32,000 nt of DNA from the NCBI GenBank assembly GCA_030149205.1, contig JASBSB010000006.1:240001-272000 (forward strand). The letters run 5' to 3'. Shown here one piece after another: positions 8,214 to 32,000 of this stretch. Below the pieces are notes generated by a model that saw only the letters and a program-made list of their open reading frames with translations, made no database searches and had not been told where the DNA came from. The first letter of the stretch is position 1; every line of letters begins with the position of its first letter. Both the position numbers and the translations under genes were made by a program. The DNA comes from Candidatus Heimdallarchaeota archaeon. GTDB lineage: Archaea > Asgardarchaeota > Heimdallarchaeia > Heimdallarchaeales > Kariarchaeaceae.

Positions 8214-8975
8214 ATGTTTGGAAAAACCCTCTCATTTCAAATCAGACCTATCAATCCCCAATCAATAGTAAGGTATTCAAACAAGCTGCTCAGAACTTTC
8301 ATTTTTGGCTCTGTTTTATTGGTCTCTAATTTTGGAATTGGACTATTCTTACGGAGATCTGGTGAGCTATTCCCTTTTTTTGGTCACTCATCTGTCGCAT
8401 ATTTTGATAACTGGTTGTTCGGTTTGCTCATCACAGGTATCATTACAACCCTTTACTTCATGTTAGATAAAACCGACAGTGAAATTTCAAATAGAAGGTT
8501 CCTGAGTGATTTTTATAAAATTATCAAATTAAATTATCAAGAAAATGTTTTTAACGAGGATGAATCATTTGGGAAGGCTTCTCAATTCAAACTTGATCTA
8601 ATTTTAGACATAGCTCACGGAATTTTATTAAACGTTCTGATCTCAATAGCAATTTTGGTTTTAGGATTTCCAATTTATTCTTTCCTTAGTTTGATGATTT
8701 TCCTGATAATTTTCTACTTTGTACAAAGTATTTTATTAGGAATGTATGTTTCTTTTGTTCTAGCTATCTTTACAACAACAATGATTGTTTTAAAATTTAT
8801 ATTCAAAGAAAGAGAAATTGAGGAGGATAATGAATCATTTGTTAGCCCTATATCAAAAAGAGTCCTTGATATTTATAAATCAGAGAACCCTGCGATTTTA
8901 TGTCAAGAATGTGGGAGCTTTAACGCAGCAGAGAGAGAATTCTGTTCTGTGTGTCTGACCACACTTGAAAAATAG
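8214..8975 (+). CDS. Membrane protein with C-terminal zinc ribbon
   Basis: About four hydrophobic helices; terminal CQECGSFNAAEREFCSVC (CxxC-x10-CxxC). Confidence 0.72.
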   Translation: MFGKTLSFQIRPINPQSIVRYSNKLLRTFIFGSVLLVSNFGIGLFLRRSGELFPFFGHSSVAYFDNWLFGLLITGIITTLYFMLDKTDSEISNRRFLSDFYKIIKLNYQENVFNEDESFGKASQFKLDLILDIAHGILLNVLISIAILVLGFPIYSFLSLMIFLIIFYFVQSILLGMYVSFVLAIFTTTMIVLKFIFKEREIEEDNESFVSPISKRVLDIYKSENPAILCQECGSFNAAEREFCSVCLTTLEK

Positions 8976-9048
8976 CGCCTGCAGGACTTGAACCATGCGA
9001 TCTTTGGGTTATGAGCCCAACGAGTTAACCAAACTACTCCAAGGCGCT
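8973..9048 (-). tRNA. Initiator tRNA-Met (CAT)
   Basis: Minus strand reads AGCGCCT-TG-GAGT-AGTTTGGTTA-ACTC-G-TTGGG-CTCATAA-CCCAA-AGATC-GCA(T)GG-TTCAAGT-CCTGC-AGGCGCT-A. It has A1:U72, A11:U24 and three G:C pairs in the anticodon stem, all archaeal initiator hallmarks. CCA is not encoded. Confidence 0.93.
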
Positions 9049-14782: not shown

Positions 14783-16096
14783 TTAAATGGTTATAGGAAT
14801 AGACTTTAATGCTATGGTTAATGGAAAGCTGTCAGTTTTTGTGAAAAGGGTTAGATGCAAATAAGGGATGTTAATTAATTTATCTGCTTTAATTTTAAGT
14901 AAGACAAAGGGGGTAGCCTGGATCAGATACCCGCTAATGTTGTACAATGATACTACTTCTGATTGACCAATAAAAAGTGGTTTGGTGGCTACCCAACTTA
15001 GGTTTCCAAATATGACATCATCGATTGTTGCAAACCTCATTGATACACTTGAAGTATTCAAATCAATTAGAAAATCATTTCTTAGGCTTAGATTTAAGGT
15101 AAAATTACCATTTCCGGTAGATTGATCTAAGCCTGTTATATTGAAATTAGAGATTGAGAATCCAAACGCATCTATGGTTGAAATATTTACCCTTACTGAG
15201 GTAAGTACAGGTATAGGTAAGCCCAGAATTTTAATGGTTCCATTTATTAAGACATGAATAGCCTGTGGAGAAGAGTTTATGAGAAATGCAACTGTTTCAT
15301 TAAATTTTTCAACCATGGTAATTGGTAATGTGTAATTGTGGGAATTGGGGGATAGAAATAATTCGAGTGATTTATTAGAGACGCCCAGTAACCTATTCAA
15401 GATAATGAATTGTAAATCGCCAACAAAGGTGGGAGAAATCCCAAGTGTGTTATTTATCATTAAGGACATCAGAGTGGTTCTGTTATTAGAATTAGTAGGT
15501 GTTTCAATGCGATTGATCTTAAATTGTAATGTATTTTTATTAGTGATATGGAGAATATTGTTGAAGTTTATCTGTTGTGAGATTCCATAAATACTAAAAT
15601 CTATTATACCCTTAAAGGGGATATTAAGAGTTTGACCTGCCAATAATTGACTGAAAAGTAGGACTGTAAACCCATCCTGATTAGAAAGTGTGGGACTAAT
15701 TTCTATGTCAAAGCTAATTGGAATCTTGAGTATGTTTCCTGAGATTGAGTTTGTTATTTGCTTTATCCCTGTGAAATTATTGAAGATGAAGGTTCCTAAG
15801 GATTTTGACTGATTTGTTGTAAATTCAACCGTTAGTTTATTTAGGTGAATGTTCCCTCCGGATGTTGATGTGCTCAAATTATAGATCAGAAGATTCGAGT
15901 GGACAGTTAATGCACCATTTGACTCTGAAAGTAGGATATCTCCCAATTCAAATCTTGCAGCATTTAGTTCGTTTGTAAATTGTGATTGACTATTTTGTAG
16001 TTGAACAAATTGGTACCCCAAAACGCTTGCCAGTAATATTATGACTCCTATCGCAATGACCTTTAAGTTGAGTTTTGAGTTAAGCAAAGATTTCAA
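14783..16096 (-). CDS. Membrane-anchored secreted beta-rich protein with probable tandem LEA_2/WHy-like domains
   Basis: One N-terminal TM helix (KVIAIGVIILLASVLGY), then three segments with an l.l.l.i.N...i.l..l pattern; many N-x-S/T sequons. Confidence 0.55.
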   Translation of the reverse strand: MKSLLNSKLNLKVIAIGVIILLASVLGYQFVQLQNSQSQFTNELNAARFELGDILLSESNGALTVHSNLLIYNLSTSTSGGNIHLNKLTVEFTTNQSKSLGTFIFNNFTGIKQITNSISGNILKIPISFDIEISPTLSNQDGFTVLLFSQLLAGQTLNIPFKGIIDFSIYGISQQINFNNILHITNKNTLQFKINRIETPTNSNNRTTLMSLMINNTLGISPTFVGDLQFIILNRLLGVSNKSLELFLSPNSHNYTLPITMVEKFNETVAFLINSSPQAIHVLINGTIKILGLPIPVLTSVRVNISTIDAFGFSISNFNITGLDQSTGNGNFTLNLSLRNDFLIDLNTSSVSMRFATIDDVIFGNLSWVATKPLFIGQSEVVSLYNISGYLIQATPFVLLKIKADKLINIPYLHLTLFTKTDSFPLTIALKSIPITI

Positions 16097-17395: not shown

Positions 17396-20300
17396 TCAAA
17401 GAAAGAATTTCTGTTCTGTAAGTTTGAGGTAAGAAGCATGCATCTGTGGATTGTCTGGATACTGTTTGTAAGCATTATGAATAAAATCCTCAAAAAGACT
17501 GAAGATTTCGTAATGGTTATTTGATAAGAAGGTGACTATTTGTGTAAGATCTGTCTCAGTGAGAAGAGGAATAATACCGGTTATGTGGTCTCTCAGTGAA
17601 AGGAAAGTTGTACTGAAGGCTATTTTTTCAATCTGGTTATCATCAGATCTTATCTCAAGATTTTCAAGGGTTTCTATTATTTTCACTCCATTAGGGTTTC
17701 TCCAATTAGAAAAGGCATGATTAAGAACATAAAGGAGGTTGATAAGATGTTTTTCAGGTTTAGAGGATTTAATACCCGTGAGGTACAGACTAAAGATCTT
17801 AATTGTGAGTAGAACTGAAAGGATTGGGTAACCTCTCTCTGGATCAGCTACTTTATCAAATTCTGAAAACCAGTATGAAAGAATTTCTTCTTTCTGATTT
17901 GAGACGGTAATTAGATGGTTTTCAGTGACAAATTTAGAAAACATCAAAGTCGAATATATTTCAGAATGAAGCTCTAAGGGTAAACAATAGTTTTCAATAA
18001 ACTTCTCAAAATCATTCAAATTTATCAATAAATGATAAAGGTCAGGAGATACATTCAATAACAATTCGCACTTGCTCTTTGGTTCACCTAGATAACCGAT
18101 AAACAGAAACGAATTATAGGTATCATCTAGATTAATCTTCATCTCTAATGTTTTGCTGACGAGTTTAAAAATCAAAATTTTTGTCTTAATTATGACGGGT
18201 TTATTGCTCCTATATCTTCTCAAAGAGCTCAATAACTCATATCCAAGAGATTTCTTGTTCAATAACCCTTCGACAATAAGTTTTGTAAGGTTAAGAACTG
18301 TTTTAAGCTGAATCTCCGACAGATTTTGCTTATCCACCCATTCAGTTAAATCTGTAATTAATTCCAAATAGTTCTGAGTCCTAATCTTTCTCAAATGTAC
18401 AAGGGTCTGTGGATAAAAGGTTGAGCTTTCATGGATTAGTGGGAGTAGGTTTTCAGACAATTCAGTAACAAGAAACAAGAAATCATCAACTGTCAGCCTT
18501 TTAAAACTTAAACCGATCACTAATAAGGCATAAATTTCCCTTAATTTGCGAGAATCTTCAATGAGGTATAGGTTAATTAAATTTAAAAGATTGAGCTTGT
18601 CAATCAATTCCCCTAGCACCCCAATCTCAACCTTGAAGATATCTAAAACTATCTCCGAAATTGAAGAATATGTTGTATCCTTAGAATTTTTAAATTGAAG
18701 ATCTGCAATCATTTTAACTAAGGTGGAAGGCGTACTTACTAGATAATTTGCTAACTCTTTTAATGAGCTAAACCCTTGTTCTAACTTAGAAGAGTTTAGT
18801 ATTAATCTTACAACAGTGAAATCATGCCTTGGAATGATCGGCTCAAGTGGTTTTAACACTGATAAATTTTGTAGTAGAGCAGATTCTTTGGGATAATTAC
18901 TCATAATCAATTCAGAAAGGTCATCTGCAAGTGTGGATTTATTATCTCCTACTTCGAAAAGTAAGAATTGCAGTAGATGACTGAAAATCAATTGATCGAA
19001 GGATACTTCTAAGTCTATGGAAGCGATCTTATAATACAATAACCTATGATATTTCCGAACTGGACTGAGTAGCATGTTACTTGAATATACTAAGAGCCGA
19101 TTATATAGTGAAAATTGGTTTGATGATGTTATCTCAGAATAAGATTGCTGAACCAGTTCTATTAAACTATTTAATATTTGTGGACCTTTAATTTCCAAAT
19201 TAGGATTGAAAACCAAATCGAAAATAGAACGTCTCTCTTGAGAGGGTAAAAATCTGAGGAAGGGGAGGAATAATTCTGGGAATGCTAAGTACTGTGAATT
19301 TACACTTATTGTGTTTAATATAGTAACTGCTCTTTTTTCTAAGAAACTTTTATTTTCTTCATGAGAAGTAATCAGTTTGTTGAATTTTGAAACTAAATCA
19401 TTGGTTATAACCCATTGATTTTCTGTTGTTAACTTCAATAGGTCAATATTTAATGGTTCACCTTCCATTAGAAGTAGAACCTGCAAGTAAACTATATTCG
19501 TCATCTCTGGTTGTAAATCAATAAACCCAGATCTTGCCTTGATCAGATACACCAACTGTTCCTGGTCTAAAGTTGCTTGATTTATTACATCTCTATTAGG
19601 TTCAAAAATTTGCTGATTCTTTTCAATAAGTTGAAAATAAAGGTTTACAAGGTCTAAAAATTCAAAGAGCTTTAATTCGCTGTCTTTTATCTCCAATTCT
19701 TGAAGATTTACAAGTATTGAGTTCAAAATGGTCTCACTTGTAAACATGAATCCATAACGATTCACAGTAAATAAGGGTAATTTAACAGATAACTCCTGGA
19801 ATACCGACAACGAATCTTTCTCTAATTCCTCAAAATATACAAAACAATTTTTCAACGTGTCTCGACTCAAAAAATCATCATTAGGTTTCCTTCCTTCTAA
19901 TTTGTTTCGGAATATCAAAATTAAATATTCTAACAATTGAATAGATTCTAAATTTAGACCATGGAAAAGAGAAATTTTCCTTTGGGTACTTAGATTGACA
20001 TTTTGAAGGTTTGAAGGTTGCGAAATTTCTTGAGGTAGAGTGAGGGTCATTTTTTTGAAAACTGCTAAATAGGGAATCAGTAACTCATGAGGAACATCTG
20101 GGTAATCTGCTCTATATATCCCTTTAAGATTTTCAACAAAACTTGAATAATAGTTTGCATAAAGAGAGGGCAAGAGATGTAGGGTTTCAGGACTAAGGAT
20201 TACATACAAGTTTGAGATGATGATCGACCCTATTAATTCCTTTACCAGACCTGATGGGAGGTTAATGGTTTCAACAATACTAAGTTTCGGGTCAAGCTCA

Positions 20301-21340
20301 ACTTCTAACGCTAGCTCATAGAAACTTAAAGGACTTTCAACAAAGAAAACCAATTTCAGATCTAGACCTTTAATGGATTTAAGAAAACTCTTTATCTCAG
20401 CTTGTGACTGCTGTTGTATATAGGCAAATCCTGAAAGAAAAATTAACAAAGGTCTTTTGATTTGAGATTTAACAGATTGTAGAATCTCTTCAGGTGAATC
20501 ACTTTCTCTTTGTAAATTTAACTCTAAGGATTTCAGATCAAGCTGGTCAAGAATTTGATCTGTTACTTGTTTTATGATTGGTTTATTTTCATCAATCATT
20601 ATCAAGTTAATTTGAATTACAGGAGCATGTTTCTCAATTTGTAATATAAGCATAGATCTTATAAAAGAATCTGAATTAATAATCACGGTAGCATTTAACA
20701 AAGATTGATCCAAGAGATTTGATAGAATGCTGGGGTTATATTTTAGAAAGATTTCTAACAATACAGTTGAAGAAGGATTTAAATCAAAGGTTAAATCATG
20801 CCCACAATGAGTTGCATCAAAGAATTGCAGTGCTAATACAAACCCCTCCCGTTTAATAAAAACTTCTGACCATGAATTTTTTGCTGTTGATATCACAATC
20901 AGATTTAACTCTGCAAGGTACCTTAGTTTTTCTAACTTAAATAACTGTCTAAACTTCTTTTTTTTTCCAAATACTTTATTCCATTCGTCTTTAGATCCTG
21001 TAACATCCCTTTCGTAATGAATCTGCTGGACTTCCTCCCTGTTAACCAGACGGAAAGGTTGTTCAGGTATTAAAACCTCAGATCGTGCGGTTTTATTCTC
21101 ATTCTCAGATATCAAAGTTTCGCTTTGTTTCCTTCGGGAAGCGACTGCGAGATGAATCAAAATCTGTTGTAAATCAAAGTCATCTGTTAGTACCTCTCTT
21201 GAATTAAAAAAATTCTCCAGTGATATTTGATTAAGTAGATTTTCAAACAGGTTATCCTCACCTAATAGAACCCTCTTTTCGTTGATCGAATGATGCTTTT
21301 TGAAATTTTCTAGATTAGATTTTAGGTCCTTAAAGGTCAC
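17396..21340 (-). CDS. Large hypothetical protein: probable wHTH + degenerate P-loop NTPase (STAND/AAA+-like) + helical repeat region
   Basis: Uninterrupted 1314-aa ORF with a GTG start. Domain assignment is by secondary-structure pattern only (see findings). Confidence 0.5.
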   Translation of the reverse strand: MTFKDLKSNLENFKKHHSINEKRVLLGEDNLFENLLNQISLENFFNSREVLTDDFDLQQILIHLAVASRRKQSETLISENENKTARSEVLIPEQPFRLVNREEVQQIHYERDVTGSKDEWNKVFGKKKKFRQLFKLEKLRYLAELNLIVISTAKNSWSEVFIKREGFVLALQFFDATHCGHDLTFDLNPSSTVLLEIFLKYNPSILSNLLDQSLLNATVIINSDSFIRSMLILQIEKHAPVIQINLIMIDENKPIIKQVTDQILDQLDLKSLELNLQRESDSPEEILQSVKSQIKRPLLIFLSGFAYIQQQSQAEIKSFLKSIKGLDLKLVFFVESPLSFYELALEVELDPKLSIVETINLPSGLVKELIGSIIISNLYVILSPETLHLLPSLYANYYSSFVENLKGIYRADYPDVPHELLIPYLAVFKKMTLTLPQEISQPSNLQNVNLSTQRKISLFHGLNLESIQLLEYLILIFRNKLEGRKPNDDFLSRDTLKNCFVYFEELEKDSLSVFQELSVKLPLFTVNRYGFMFTSETILNSILVNLQELEIKDSELKLFEFLDLVNLYFQLIEKNQQIFEPNRDVINQATLDQEQLVYLIKARSGFIDLQPEMTNIVYLQVLLLMEGEPLNIDLLKLTTENQWVITNDLVSKFNKLITSHEENKSFLEKRAVTILNTISVNSQYLAFPELFLPFLRFLPSQERRSIFDLVFNPNLEIKGPQILNSLIELVQQSYSEITSSNQFSLYNRLLVYSSNMLLSPVRKYHRLLYYKIASIDLEVSFDQLIFSHLLQFLLFEVGDNKSTLADDLSELIMSNYPKESALLQNLSVLKPLEPIIPRHDFTVVRLILNSSKLEQGFSSLKELANYLVSTPSTLVKMIADLQFKNSKDTTYSSISEIVLDIFKVEIGVLGELIDKLNLLNLINLYLIEDSRKLREIYALLVIGLSFKRLTVDDFLFLVTELSENLLPLIHESSTFYPQTLVHLRKIRTQNYLELITDLTEWVDKQNLSEIQLKTVLNLTKLIVEGLLNKKSLGYELLSSLRRYRSNKPVIIKTKILIFKLVSKTLEMKINLDDTYNSFLFIGYLGEPKSKCELLLNVSPDLYHLLINLNDFEKFIENYCLPLELHSEIYSTLMFSKFVTENHLITVSNQKEEILSYWFSEFDKVADPERGYPILSVLLTIKIFSLYLTGIKSSKPEKHLINLLYVLNHAFSNWRNPNGVKIIETLENLEIRSDDNQIEKIAFSTTFLSLRDHITGIIPLLTETDLTQIVTFLSNNHYEIFSLFEDFIHNAYKQYPDNPQMHASYLKLTEQKFFL

Positions 21341-26705: not shown

Positions 26706-27836
26706 TCAAAACGGAAAGTATCTTCTTTTTCTTAGATACTCTAAATTCACTCCAAATGTTACAGATATTTGGTTTAGGATCTCATCTAAATACTCACCTG
26801 AGAGTTTAGCCCTCTCATCTGATTCTATGATGAACGAGGGTAAAGCAACGCCTAACCCATGTTGAGTAGTAACATAAAGAACAGACAACATAATCGGAAG
26901 AAGCTCCTGAAACCAGTTCCTCTCTGGATATGCTAGGAGCTCTGTTTTAATTGCTGTGTCTTCATTCAATTTAATCAGGCTTACCCAAACCTCTACTGGA
27001 GGATGAGAGGGAACCCAACTTGGAGCTGAGCTTCGATACCATGCAGTTCTACTAGAATTCTTTAGAATAAGTGTTGCTAACTCAGAATCCAAAATGTTTG
27101 TCATAATTGCCCGATAGCCTTTAATGAGTACAGTATCAATAGATTTTGCTCGTATCCATTGGACTATGGTTTCAACTAAATTTTTGCTGAAATCTCTAGA
27201 CCTAGTGTCTTTGATAACACCAATTAGAAGAGTCTCAGATTCAAAGGCATACATTACTAATCGGTTATAGACAGACTTAACTTCATCAATCATCTGTGAA
27301 ATTAATTTTGTTTGATTTGGGTTTTGAAAATCTGTACTATGTGGGTGAACCGAGCCATCAATAAAGAAAATTTTTGGCCCATAGACCTTGATGGAGTGAT
27401 AAGCTGCCAAATATTCGTCTCTTAGTCTGAGCAATGTTGCAAGTCTGTTTAAATCATGTCTGCTATTCAGAGAGGGTGTCAAAAACACATTTGGTGAGGG
27501 ATCAAAGTTTGGATAGTATTTTACATCAACGTTCTCCCCAATACCTGAAAACACAGGTGAAACAGCTCTAGAAATTACCAGGTCAAACCCTCTCAGTTCT
27601 TCGGTAATAAGGCCACCATCCACAGCCCCAATCTTAACAAATCTTACGGGTATTGGTTCGAGAGGGACAACTATTTGTTCGTCAACCCAGAGGTCTTGCG
27701 GAAGACTTGGAAGTTCAGGGATTACCTGCTGCCATTTGGTCAGCCATTGTCTCTGCTCAGTTAATCTCTGCTGTTCTTTCTTAAGAATATCAGCTAGTTT
27801 TTGATCAAAGAAATCTGAAATGGTAACCTTCTCCAT
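26706..27836 (-). CDS. nurA: DNA double-strand break repair nuclease NurA
   Basis: GAVDGG, FFIDGS, IGVIKD and C-terminal LPSFIIESDERAKL (the P..l..a[HD]..aki motif). Confidence 0.85.
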   Translation of the reverse strand: MEKVTISDFFDQKLADILKKEQQRLTEQRQWLTKWQQVIPELPSLPQDLWVDEQIVVPLEPIPVRFVKIGAVDGGLITEELRGFDLVISRAVSPVFSGIGENVDVKYYPNFDPSPNVFLTPSLNSRHDLNRLATLLRLRDEYLAAYHSIKVYGPKIFFIDGSVHPHSTDFQNPNQTKLISQMIDEVKSVYNRLVMYAFESETLLIGVIKDTRSRDFSKNLVETIVQWIRAKSIDTVLIKGYRAIMTNILDSELATLILKNSSRTAWYRSSAPSWVPSHPPVEVWVSLIKLNEDTAIKTELLAYPERNWFQELLPIMLSVLYVTTQHGLGVALPSFIIESDERAKLSGEYLDEILNQISVTFGVNLEYLRKRRYFPF

Positions 27837-27890: not shown

Positions 27891-29804
27891 TTACTTTACT
27901 CTTTTAAATTTTCTGCGTCGTTTTTCTCGGAGCTCTTGTGCATCGATAAATTGCCTTGATCTAAGAATTATCTCAGAAGCAACATTTTGAGGAATTTTAA
28001 ATCTCTGAGAGAGGGTTTCTGAACTCTCTTTTGCAATGTTAGAAAGAGACTTGTATTCCTTCATAAGGATTGACTTCCTTTTTTCTCCAACCCCTGAAAT
28101 TTCATCAAGAAGTGTTTTTAAGCCATCTTTCATTCGGCGTTTTCGTTGATAGGTTACTGCAAATCTGTGTGCCTCATCTCTACCTGCTCTTACCAAAAGC
28201 ATCCCTGGTCTATTTTTATCAAACTGAATTGGTTCCTCCAAATTTGGTCTGTAGACCTCTTCAAGTTTTTTGGCTAGACCGATAACTGGAATACTAAGCC
28301 CTAGCTCATCAAGTGCTGTCTTTGCCCTTTTCAACTGCTCTCTCCCTCCATCTATTACAATTAGATTTGGGAGCGTCAATCCGAACTTATCCAAAGAATC
28401 TATCCAGTCACTGTACCGCCTATAAACTACCTCATACATAGATGCAAAATCATCCTGACCTTCTACAGTTCTGACCTTAAATCTCCGATATCCTTTCTTG
28501 AATGGCTTACCATGAACAAATCTTACTGATGATCCAACGTTATTTGTTCCCATGAGAGTTGAAATATCAAAAGTATCAATTATGACAGGGGGCTCATCTA
28601 GAGTTAAAATCTTTTGAAGGTCAAGAACTTGATTGGAAAAAGTTTTGGCCATTGCAAAATCACTCTTCTTTCCTAACATCACCTTTCTTCGAATAAATTG
28701 CTTGAGGTTCTGTTCCAACAGTACAACTACCTGTTTTTGATTTGCCTGCCTGTGAACAACCCGATATCCTATCTCATTCAGTATTCCATCCATACTGTCA
28801 AAGTTTGTTGCGTTCAGGACTCTGTTGAACCGATATCGCTTAGGGTCACGGCCAATAATACTAAGCGTTGTAGATAAGACAAAATCCAAGTAAATATCTC
28901 CATCAGAGCTCTCAGATTCTAGCTCTTCGATCGATATAAAAACAGGGTTTTGTTGAACCAAGTGGTTGTTTTCGACTCTTGCTACATTTACACCAAAATA
29001 TGTTTCATTTTTGTAGATTACAACTATGAAAGTGTCAGGAGAATCAATAATGACAGCCTGTTTTTCTAATGTCCTATTTAGAGACTTGAGAAGATCACGA
29101 TACTCAGCAGCTCTCTCAAACTCTAGTACATCGGCAGACTCTTTCATCAGATTTTCAACCTCCTTTTGTACTTCAGGTAGCCTACCGTCCAGAAAATTGG
29201 TTACCGCATTTATCTGTTCTCTGTAATCAACTGGATTAATGGGAACCTCACATGGTTTTAAACATTGATTGGTTCGCCTTCTAATGCATGTTTTTGCCCA
29301 GGTTTTTGCATCTCCAAGATGTATCTCATGATCACAATTTGCTACAGGAAATGTTTGCAGTATGTACTTAATGGATCTTCGAACTGCACCCACATCACTA
29401 AAAGGGCCAAGATACACCGATTCTTTGTTCTCTGTTTCTCTTGTGACAATCACTCTAGGGAATTTTTCTCCAGTTGTTATCTCTACAAAGGGGTAGGTTT
29501 TGCCATCTCTCCATTTTGAATTGATTGAAGGTTTGTGCTCTTGGATTAGATTGTATTCAAGCAGGAGTGCTTCTTTCTCAGAGCTAACCTCTACTACCTC
29601 TATATCTTTCCCCTTTTCTCTTATTACACGTGATGCAGCAAAATCATTTGAGGGGGTAAAATGGTTTCTTAACCTATTCCGAAGATTCTTTGCCTTACCT
29701 ACATATATAATTCTTCCATACTCATCTTTTATCATGTAGACCCCTGGGTTAGTTGACATGCTTTTCAAGAGCTTCTCAATTCGGGGAAGACGAACCTCCA
29801 TCAT
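27891..29804 (-). CDS. uvrC: Excinuclease ABC subunit C
   Basis: GIY-YIG (PGVY..KD..IIYVGKAKNLRNRL), YLGPF, four-Cys region, UVR domain (LEFERAAEYRD), RNase H domain (FDISTL, DDFASM, IDGG, GLAK, RDEAHRFA) and HhH (ISGVGEKR). Confidence 0.97.
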   Translation of the reverse strand: MMEVRLPRIEKLLKSMSTNPGVYMIKDEYGRIIYVGKAKNLRNRLRNHFTPSNDFAASRVIREKGKDIEVVEVSSEKEALLLEYNLIQEHKPSINSKWRDGKTYPFVEITTGEKFPRVIVTRETENKESVYLGPFSDVGAVRRSIKYILQTFPVANCDHEIHLGDAKTWAKTCIRRRTNQCLKPCEVPINPVDYREQINAVTNFLDGRLPEVQKEVENLMKESADVLEFERAAEYRDLLKSLNRTLEKQAVIIDSPDTFIVVIYKNETYFGVNVARVENNHLVQQNPVFISIEELESESSDGDIYLDFVLSTTLSIIGRDPKRYRFNRVLNATNFDSMDGILNEIGYRVVHRQANQKQVVVLLEQNLKQFIRRKVMLGKKSDFAMAKTFSNQVLDLQKILTLDEPPVIIDTFDISTLMGTNNVGSSVRFVHGKPFKKGYRRFKVRTVEGQDDFASMYEVVYRRYSDWIDSLDKFGLTLPNLIVIDGGREQLKRAKTALDELGLSIPVIGLAKKLEEVYRPNLEEPIQFDKNRPGMLLVRAGRDEAHRFAVTYQRKRRMKDGLKTLLDEISGVGEKRKSILMKEYKSLSNIAKESSETLSQRFKIPQNVASEIILRSRQFIDAQELREKRRRKFKRVK

Positions 29805-29954: not shown

Positions 29955-30057
29955 GACACGGTTCTAGAGCCTGGTACTAGGCTGGACTGCTAATCCAGTG
30001 CCATTTTGGCGCGCGGGTTCAAAAGGATCCCTGATCCTGAAATTCCCGCCCGTGTCA
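29955..30057 (+). tRNA. tRNA-Ser (GCT) with a 20-nt intron at position 59/60 (30024-30043)
   Basis: GACACGG/CCGTGTC acceptor stem, CTAG/CTAG D-stem, CTGGA-CTGCTAA-TCCAG anticodon arm, long variable arm GCCA/TGGC and T-stem GCGGG/CCCGC. The 27-nt T-loop collapses to TTCAAAT after removing a BHB-bounded intron. Confidence 0.92.
30024..30043 (+). other. Archaeal tRNA intron with strict bulge-helix-bulge motif
   Basis: Central helix TTCA(30018-21)/TGAA(30038-41), 3-nt bulges AAA(30022-24) and ATT(30042-44), inner stem GGATC/GATCC. Confidence 0.9.
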
Positions 30058-30086
30058 TCGTTTTTGTTTTAACTCAAATTCATTTT

Positions 30087-30431
30087 TTATTTGATTTCAT
30101 ACTGCTCAAATTTATCAAGATATCTTTCATCTCTGAGAATGAGAATATCATCTGATTTATCTGCTGTCTCCTTATCATTTATAATTCCCACAATCTTCTT
30201 CTCAGTGATCAACTTCAAAATTCCGGAGGTAATCTTCTCAAAATCCATGTTGATTTTGTCACTTAGCTTTGTAAACTCGATTTCGTTGCCTAACTCATTT
30301 TTTAGACTTAGAATGGTAGAATGTAGCTCACTTAGTTCATCCTCACTCACTTCTGGCAAACTTCCACTCTCCACGGTCTCTTTAGCCTTTGTGTATATAT
30401 TCTTTATTGATTCGGGATCTTCAAATGACAT
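30087..30431 (-). CDS. Small hypothetical protein with PCI-like winged-helix pattern
   Basis: EIEFTKLSDKINMDFEKITSGILKLITEKKIVGIIND fits the i.l..la..l.l....ve..l..li..g.i.g.id winged-helix pattern. Confidence 0.5.
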   Translation of the reverse strand: MSFEDPESIKNIYTKAKETVESGSLPEVSEDELSELHSTILSLKNELGNEIEFTKLSDKINMDFEKITSGILKLITEKKIVGIINDKETADKSDDILILRDERYLDKFEQYEIK

Positions 30432-30578
30432 TTGATAATTATTATATAATTCTCGTAATAAAGGTTTTTCTCGAAAAAATTATTTATACGCAAATTATTC
30501 GGAAAGATACTGATAATTTACTTTCAAACACCTCTGTTCTTTTTTAAATATCAGATTGTTAGAAAAAAGGTGTTCACA

Positions 30579-32000
30579 ATGAGTTTGGGTACAGTAATTG
30601 CAACTGAGTTTGGTCCGACTCCAACTTTATTTCAGTTTGTCATCTCTTTAGAAGAAGCAAGAAGAATCGCTGAAACTGGATTGTTCATCCAAGTGAAAAA
30701 TGATGATGGGCATATTACATTAGGGGTTATCCAAAACCTAAGAAGAACCAACAGATACTTTTCCTCACCTGATGTTATTCATGGTACCTCGACCAATTTT
30801 AAACCACCTCAATTGTTTCCATCAGAAAAATGGGATTATCTAATTGCTGAATGTAAGGTTTTAGGAACTTTTGAAAATAACTTAAACTCAAGATCAACAA
30901 AACCTGTGACTCCAGGTTCTGAGGTCACGTTAACTGATTCCATGCTTCTCCGCCGGTTTTTAGGGTTAGATATATCCCAAGGAATACAACTTGGAAAAAT
31001 TAAACAGATGGATCTTGATGTACAAATCAATTTAGACAGGTTATTACAAAAACATCTTGCAATCCTTAGTATATCAGGAGGAGGAAAATCTTATACGACT
31101 TCGGTCTTGATTGAGGAGTTACTGAAACGACCAAAAAACATCGGAAGACCAGCAATAGTCCTTTTTGATGTCCATGGAGAGTATTCACAACTCACTGAAC
31201 TCTCAAGACTCAAAGAGTTTAAGCATGCAGAGGTTAATCTAATTCGAGCAGACTCAATTAAAATTAATGCTTCAATGTTATCCTCTAGAGATTTTGCCAC
31301 ATTACAGCCTTCAATGAGTCATGCACAACAAAGAGAACTAAGTGCCATCATCAGTGAACTTAAGCACAAAAAACAAAAAATTACAATAGGAGCCATCAAA
31401 AACCTGTTAATTTCTAAAGAAATAAATCAAATGGTAAAAGAAGCGTTGGTTGGTTGGTTAACTGTTCTTGAAAACTCTAACCTATTTAGCTACTATGAAA
31501 GTCCAAATCTTCAGGAAGAGGTGGTTCCCGGGTCTTTGACAATAATTGATCTTTCTCCAATCATCTCATTGTGGTCCAAACAGGTAATCGTATATTATTT
31601 TTTAAACAGAATTTTCAACTTAAGAAGAGTTAAAGATATTCCCCCTGTAATCACATTAATTGAGGAAGCACACCAATTCTGCCCCGAACAAACAACAAGT
31701 CCAACGAAGAAGATCATTGAGACGATTGCCAGAGAGGGGAGAAAATTCCTGACATCTTTGGTGCTGATTTCCCAAAGACCCGTGAATCTTTCTACCACAG
31801 CACTCTCTCAATGTAATTCCCATTTGATTATGAGAATATTGAACCCACATGATTTAAATTACATTGCCAAAACCTCAGAGGGAATAACTACTGAAACATT
31901 GCAGACAATTACATCATTAGGTGTCGGAGAGGGTTTGCTAGCAGGTAATGCGACGAACTATCCCATTTTTCTGCAAATCAGAGAGAAGATGCTTCAGACC
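30579..32000 (+). CDS. herA: HerA helicase/ATPase (runs off the window end; absent from the ORF track)
   Basis: Translated by hand from ATG 30579 (MSLGTVIATEFGPTP...). HAS-barrel-like N-terminus, KHLAILSISGGGKSYT (Walker A), LFDVHGEY, LIEEAHQF (Walker B), IAREGRKF, LISQRP, SQCNS. Confidence 0.92.
   Translation, partial: MSLGTVIATEFGPTPTLFQFVISLEEARRIAETGLFIQVKNDDGHITLGVIQNLRRTNRYFSSPDVIHGTSTNFKPPQLFPSEKWDYLIAECKVLGTFENNLNSRSTKPVTPGSEVTLTDSMLLRRFLGLDISQGIQLGKIKQMDLDVQINLDRLLQKHLAILSISGGGKSYTTSVLIEELLKRPKNIGRPAIVLFDVHGEYSQLTELSRLKEFKHAEVNLIRADSIKINASMLSSRDFATLQPSMSHAQQRELSAIISELKHKKQKITIGAIKNLLISKEINQMVKEALVGWLTVLENSNLFSYYESPNLQEEVVPGSLTIIDLSPIISLWSKQVIVYYFLNRIFNLRRVKDIPPVITLIEEAHQFCPEQTTSPTKKIIETIAREGRKFLTSLVLISQRPVNLSTTALSQCNSHLIMRILNPHDLNYIAKTSEGITTETLQTITSLGVGEGLLAGNATNYPIFLQIREKMLQT

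Follow-up and report, generated by a model that had tools for sequence, protein, structure and literature searches.

Non-canonical BHB introns at position 59/60 of archaeal tRNA genes were reportedly described by Marck and Grosjean in 2003 and by Sugahara in 2007/2008. The site is also among the listed positions of non-canonical archaeal tRNA introns (Yoshihisa, 2014, PMC4090602). For the Asgard archaea, Kaneta et al. (2018, PMC5829648) described an (alpha-beta)2 EndA with an L1 loop together with non-canonical introns, and predicted hidden disrupted tRNAs, and Valentin-Alvarado et al. (2024, PMC11291895) found introns in 92-95% of Atabeyarchaeia and Freyarchaeia tRNA genes, often at non-canonical positions. 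A 2026 preprint on 90 Asgard genomes (bioRxiv 10.64898/2026.10.13.758758) reports that called introns cluster at 37/38 and within the T arm and have canonical BHBs, that 44 of 60 Asgard genomes have two EndA paralogues, and that intron gains were repeated and patchy; according to the same preprint, splicing has not yet been shown in any Asgard cell.

The gene analysed here lies in a 32,000-nt stretch of an archaeal genome (the window, to which coordinates without a contig name refer). It is very probably a functional, single-copy tRNA-Ser(GCU) gene with a BHB intron at 59/60 that is spliced by EndA and RtcB. With the known 59/60 introns it shares the site, the hBHBh' geometry, a T arm that mimics an anticodon arm, a short intron and, by prediction, processing by a protein endonuclease.

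The tRNA-Ser(GCU) gene and its T-loop intron

The gene occupies the intergenic gap between a uvrC-like gene (27891-29804, - strand) and an ORF of 114 aa (30087-30431, - strand), and comprises the following features:

29955-30057, + strand: tRNA-Ser(GCU) gene, class II, 103 nt unspliced (cloverleaf read from sequence)
29955-30023, + strand: 5' exon, tRNA positions 1-59 (sequence; ARAGORN after excision)
30013-30049, + strand: complete hBHBh' motif (sequence; found by the strict BHB scan)
30024-30043, + strand: 20-nt BHB intron between tRNA positions 59 and 60 (excision lets ARAGORN call tRNA-Ser(gct))
30044-30057, + strand: 3' exon, consisting of T60, CCCGC, CCGTGTC and discriminator A73 (sequence; ARAGORN; orthologues)
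30061-30070, + strand: T-rich run TTTTTGTTTT, 4 nt past the tRNA (from sequence)

The 5' exon holds the 5' strand of the acceptor, the D arm, the anticodon arm, the long variable arm, the 5' strand of the T stem and T-loop bases 54-59 (TTCAAA). As read from the sequence, the acceptor stem is GACACGG/CCGTGTC (7 bp, with U8), the D stem is CTAG/CTAG (with G18 and G19), and the anticodon stem CTGGA/TCCAG closes the loop CTGCTAA, with the anticodon GCT at 29988-29990 (+). The variable arm forms a hairpin, GCCA-TTT-TGGC, and the gene thus combines a long variable arm with its own stem, a serine anticodon and an intact cloverleaf, as in a class II tRNA-Ser. At the 3' end, the discriminator A is at 30057 and CCA is not encoded. 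Archaeal RNA polymerase is known to terminate at oligo-T, and the T-rich run downstream is likely a transcription stop. The surroundings include several DNA-repair genes, with nurA-like (26706-27836, -) and herA-like (30570-32000, +) genes in addition to uvrC, and further away two ORFs of 1314 aa (17396-21340, -) and 437 aa (14783-16096, -) had no Pfam match.

The T stem, GCGGG (30013-17) paired with CCCGC (30045-49), encloses 27 nt (30018-30044) instead of 7. It provides the exon helix h (5 bp) of a motif which continues with a 4-bp central helix, TTCA (30018-21) with TGAA (30038-41), two bulges on opposite strands (5' AAA, 30022-24, and 3' ATT, 30042-44) and an inner hairpin, GGATC-CCT-GATCC (30025-37), as the 5-bp intron helix h'. 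All 14 of these pairs (5+4+5) are Watson-Crick. Removal of 30024-30043, with cuts after the second base of each bulge, leaves the T-loop TTCAAAT, which was obtained from this deletion only among five 20-nt deletions tried (starts 30020-30024). The predicted spliced T-arm product is GCGGGTTCAAATCCCGC, and the junction predicted for the spliced tRNA reads GCGGGUUCAAAUCCCGC.

Across both strands of the 3.3-Mb genome, a strict BHB scan (3+4+3 bp, G-U allowed, intron lengths 10-130) gave 70,643 matches, or ~9e-5 per pair of sites, whereas the pairs of the tRNA-Ser motif number 5+4+5, are all Watson-Crick and stand in exactly the register by which the loop is restored. In isolation, the BHB conformer of the T arm is 2.3 kcal/mol less stable than the MFE fold (-14.2 vs. 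-16.5 kcal/mol), which lacks the 4-bp central helix and favours a 6-bp inner hairpin; the whole precursor folds with z = -4.9.

A preliminary description of this DNA had proposed that a non-canonical intron, set in a perfect BHB, interrupts a tRNA-Ser(GCT) at 59/60, and that its excision would restore TTCAAAT exactly. The sequence, the strict scan and ARAGORN all bear out the first point, and intron-less orthologues, which carry the predicted product (see below), the second. Its warning that standard annotation could miss the gene was equally sound, as assessed with ARAGORN and Rfam: ARAGORN made no call on the unspliced gene and called tRNA-Ser(gct) once 30024-30043 was excised, and the Rfam tRNA model RF00005 missed the unspliced gene at its gathering threshold. 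At a permissive threshold, the tRNA-Sec model alone aligned, scoring 22 bits and placing a 22-nt insertion in the T-loop.

The same description had raised the possibility of another, intron-less tRNA-Ser(GCT) serving AGY codons, and none was found: the assembly holds a single GCT anticodon arm in a tRNA context, its completeness of 93.5% leaving a small chance of a second, intron-less copy. In 808 long open frames, the codons AGT and AGC have a combined frequency of 22 per 1000. As the only Ser(GCU) gene found in a genome that uses AGY codons, this gene must work, and for annotation it means that neither ARAGORN nor the Rfam tRNA model detects the sole gene found for these serine codons.

Orthologous genes and turnover at 59/60

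When the gene was compared by BLAST with 60 relatives of the present genome (G000), every alignment ended at the predicted 5' splice site, and the 5' exon was 93-94% identical to two intron-less orthologues (L002 and L003). The insert is absent in G001 and G003, which belong to the same genus, and in G007 and G011, which belong to the same family; these genes carry the sequence predicted for the spliced product, GCGGGTTCAAATCCCGC (CCGGGTTCGAATCCCGG in G011). On RF00005, the intron-less genes of G001, G003, G011 and G067 score 55-58 bits and that of G007 only 29.1 bits, a partial match that barely passes the cut-off of 29 bits; the intron-bearing orthologues were all missed by this model at gathering.

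Four other relatives (G002, G004, G008 and G009) have inserts of 30-46 nt at 59/60, 30 nt in the case of G002, with unrelated sequences, and the inserts that two more (G055 and G058) have there also differ in length and sequence from that of G000. The central helix is perfect in G008 (TTCG/CGAA), includes one G-U pair in G002, and has an A.G mismatch in G004 and in G009. A class-wide survey of Ser(GCT) genes for this site, one of the checks advised in the preliminary description, was run as a pattern search over 83 genomes followed by reading of the loci, and placed an insert at 59/60 in seven of 34 genes, the sequences again being unrelated. Some of the 27 genes without it carry a D-loop insert instead. 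Inserts of ~20-25 nt in the D-loop region, with no T-loop intron, occur at L006, L007 and L009 (in G014, G016 and G018) and in most loci of family f5 (L024, L026-L029, L032, L033 and L035), so that the place at which the Ser(GCT) gene is interrupted varies from family to family.

A single-gene tree of pyrG places G000 as sister to G001, G002 and G003, which, combined with the distribution of introns, implies at least 3-4 gains or losses within the family. In G000, G001, G002 and G007, pyrG and the Ser gene share a contig and are 2.6-13 kb apart. This loose linkage supports orthology, though the immediate flanks are not conserved: in 14 relatives, no homologue of UvrC, HerA or the 114-aa ORF was found within 1.5 kb of the Ser(GCT) gene. 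Stops in pyrG of G015 and G020, which had been suspected to be mRNA mini-introns, are natural stop codons.

The site is empty in the genus mates G001 and G003 and filled by an unrelated 30-nt intron in G002. We tentatively suggest that, in this Asgard family, tRNA-Ser(GCU) may have a hot spot of recurrent insertion at position 59/60, and that the 20-nt intron of G000 may be a recent, lineage-specific gain. If so, such filled and empty pairs could help to reveal the route by which BHB introns come to lie in tRNA genes, the open problem named in the 2026 preprint (bioRxiv 10.64898/2026.10.13.758758).

T-loop introns across the genome and the means to splice them

In a genome-wide census, in which T arms interrupted after position 59 by an insert of 10-130 nt were collected and ARAGORN was run on the spliced sequences, 24 tRNA genes carried inserts of 17-30 nt at 59/60, and half of these genes (12 of 24) also had an anticodon-loop intron. 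The central helix is paired at all four positions in 22 of the 24. Base 57 and intron base -6, the sixth from the end of the intron, covary, the pair being A-T in 15 genes, G-C in seven and G.A in two, and the bulges are mostly AAA and ATT. The two introns whose central helix has a G.A mismatch at its inner end are those of tRNA-Pro(TGG) and tRNA-Leu(TAA) (C2:480740-480769 and C4:455919-455948), relaxed BHBs that would need an EndA of broad specificity. The interiors of the 24 introns, when compared with each other, are unrelated, and no second copy of the Ser(GCT) intron was found in the genome; these two results contradict intron transposition, which had been considered.

In total, 24 T-loop and about 24 anticodon-loop introns are distributed over about 45 tRNA genes, or ~1 per gene, and only about nine tRNA genes are uninterrupted. 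One of these nine is in the window, a tRNA-Met(CAT) at 8973-9048 (-) that scores 62 bits on RF00005. Only 23-26 tRNAs of this 3.3-Mb, 93.5% complete genome are visible to ARAGORN -i or RF00005, and about half of its tRNA set is hidden by the same cause as the Ser gene. Such hidden tRNAs will make tRNA-based estimates of completeness and codon capacity wrong for Asgard genomes of this kind unless BHB-aware tools are used.

The genome also contains a relatively GC-rich repeat of ~140 nt, in at least 11 copies with 90-100% identity, including the following:

Copies at contig ends: C1:1-141, C2:1-141, C8:633487-633630, C9:1-149, C10:1-151, C12:1-140 and C12:82211-82350
Internal copies: C2:282813-282951, C2:371998-372137 and C3:803-942

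Its presence at the ends of six contigs indicates that it evidently breaks the assembly. An Rfam search with this repeat gave no match, and the gene next to it in C2 is a glycosyltransferase rather than a transposase; the repeat could be a MITE or a structured RNA.

As for the splicing machinery, the genome has two PF01974 genes, at C4:500233-500883 and C2:623193-623813, and an RtcB gene (555 bits). The first PF01974 product, an alpha-like EndA of 216 aa, has the catalytic subunit of Aeropyrum pernix as its best match (3p1z_B, E 3e-31). Against the A. pernix (APE) residues named in PMC3241643, its Y153, H161 and K192 align with the triad Y125/H133/K164, its R185 with R157, and its K72 and K74 with K44 and R46 of the L1/CSL loop, across which there is no gap. 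This Crenarchaea-specific (L1) loop gives EndA a broad substrate range. The second paralogue (206 aa) matches the EndA of M. kandleri and M. jannaschii; in one pairwise alignment, a Ser takes the place of the catalytic His, which fits a candidate structural, non-catalytic beta subunit. These alignments make an (alpha-beta)2 heterotetramer, with a crenarchaeal-type L1 loop in its catalytic subunit, the most likely form of the enzyme. The EndA typing proposed in the preliminary description thus gave a catalytic alpha with an L1 loop plus a candidate beta. The Asgard host, also proposed there, agrees with the presence of a Vps28 homologue, which is absent from 14 control genomes, and with the nearest EndA cluster in the Atlas belonging to Promethearchaeota; on these two grounds we take the host to be an Asgard archaeon.

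The T stem, the intron hairpin and T-loop bases 54-57, which pair with the intron TGAA, would together give the precursor a strict helix-bulge-helix-bulge-helix, with the geometry of an anticodon arm that holds a canonical 37/38 intron. EndA would cut after the second base of each 3-nt bulge, and RtcB would join the exons and so restore the T-loop UUCAAAU. That cleavage and ligation take place in vivo we infer from the motif, the match of the product to the orthologues, the enzymes encoded and the recurrence of the arrangement through the genome.

A tRNA-Ser pseudogene, killed by the 20-nt insertion in its T-loop, would likewise go unrecognised as a tRNA by ARAGORN and Rfam and be uninterrupted in the nearest relatives, as this gene is. 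However, this is the sole Ser(GCU) gene found, where AGY codons are common; its stems are all intact, its exons keep 93-94% identity to working orthologues, and the insert forms a BHB of 14 pairs, all Watson-Crick, in precisely the register that allows splicing. As 23 other tRNAs have the same kind of insert, many of them the sole gene for their anticodon in the census, we hold a dead gene to be extremely unlikely.

It is very unlikely, too, that the insert is never spliced and that the mature tRNA keeps it, as an extra hairpin or a larger T-loop. In favour of this, the inner hairpin is stable by itself, but a retained insert would disrupt the conserved T-loop, and the intron-less orthologues identify the 7-nt loop as the conserved product. 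Moreover, the covariation of base 57 with i(-6) in 24 genes preserves a helix needed only for recognition by the endonuclease, and the genome has both an EndA with an intact catalytic triad and RtcB. With a draft of 12 contigs, an error of assembly or sequencing might be suspected as the source of the insert, yet the site lies 270 kb into a contig of 669 kb, six other species, assembled independently, have inserts at the same position, and 23 other loci of this genome have the same architecture, which leaves an artefact a negligible chance.

Comparison with known introns and endonucleases

The tRNA-Ser(GCU) gene is an ordinary further instance of a trait that earlier work on Asgard archaea has described. 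The preliminary description had treated the intron as unusual and as carrying weight for the origin of eukaryotic tRNA splicing. Neither view is supported, since 24 tRNA genes of this genome have introns of the same type, and both the 59/60 site and the interrupted tRNAs and EndA of Asgard archaea are already published; by itself, the intron has no bearing on that origin. What the locus adds to a documented Asgard phenomenon is one clean example of a strict BHB for which both filled and empty orthologous sites are available.

Known 59/60 introns have Thermoproteales and other crenarchaeotes as hosts, whereas the host here is an Asgard archaeon, and the similarity from intron to intron that has been reported in Thermoproteales has no counterpart in the intron interiors of this genome. 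The load of ~1 intron per tRNA gene in our census is below the 2.0-2.4 reported for Jordiarchaeia and Atabeyarchaeia. With the EndA of A. pernix (PDB 3P1Z; PMC3241643), the alpha-like protein shares a gap-free L1 loop and the Tyr-His-Lys triad, whereas the second paralogue is closer to the enzymes of M. kandleri and M. jannaschii than to crenarchaeal beta subunits. The Asgard survey of 2026 matches the observations at this locus and in this genome: it, too, describes many non-canonical introns, mainly at 37/38 and within the T arm, BHBs of canonical form, a pair of EndA paralogues, and gains that are patchy and repeated.
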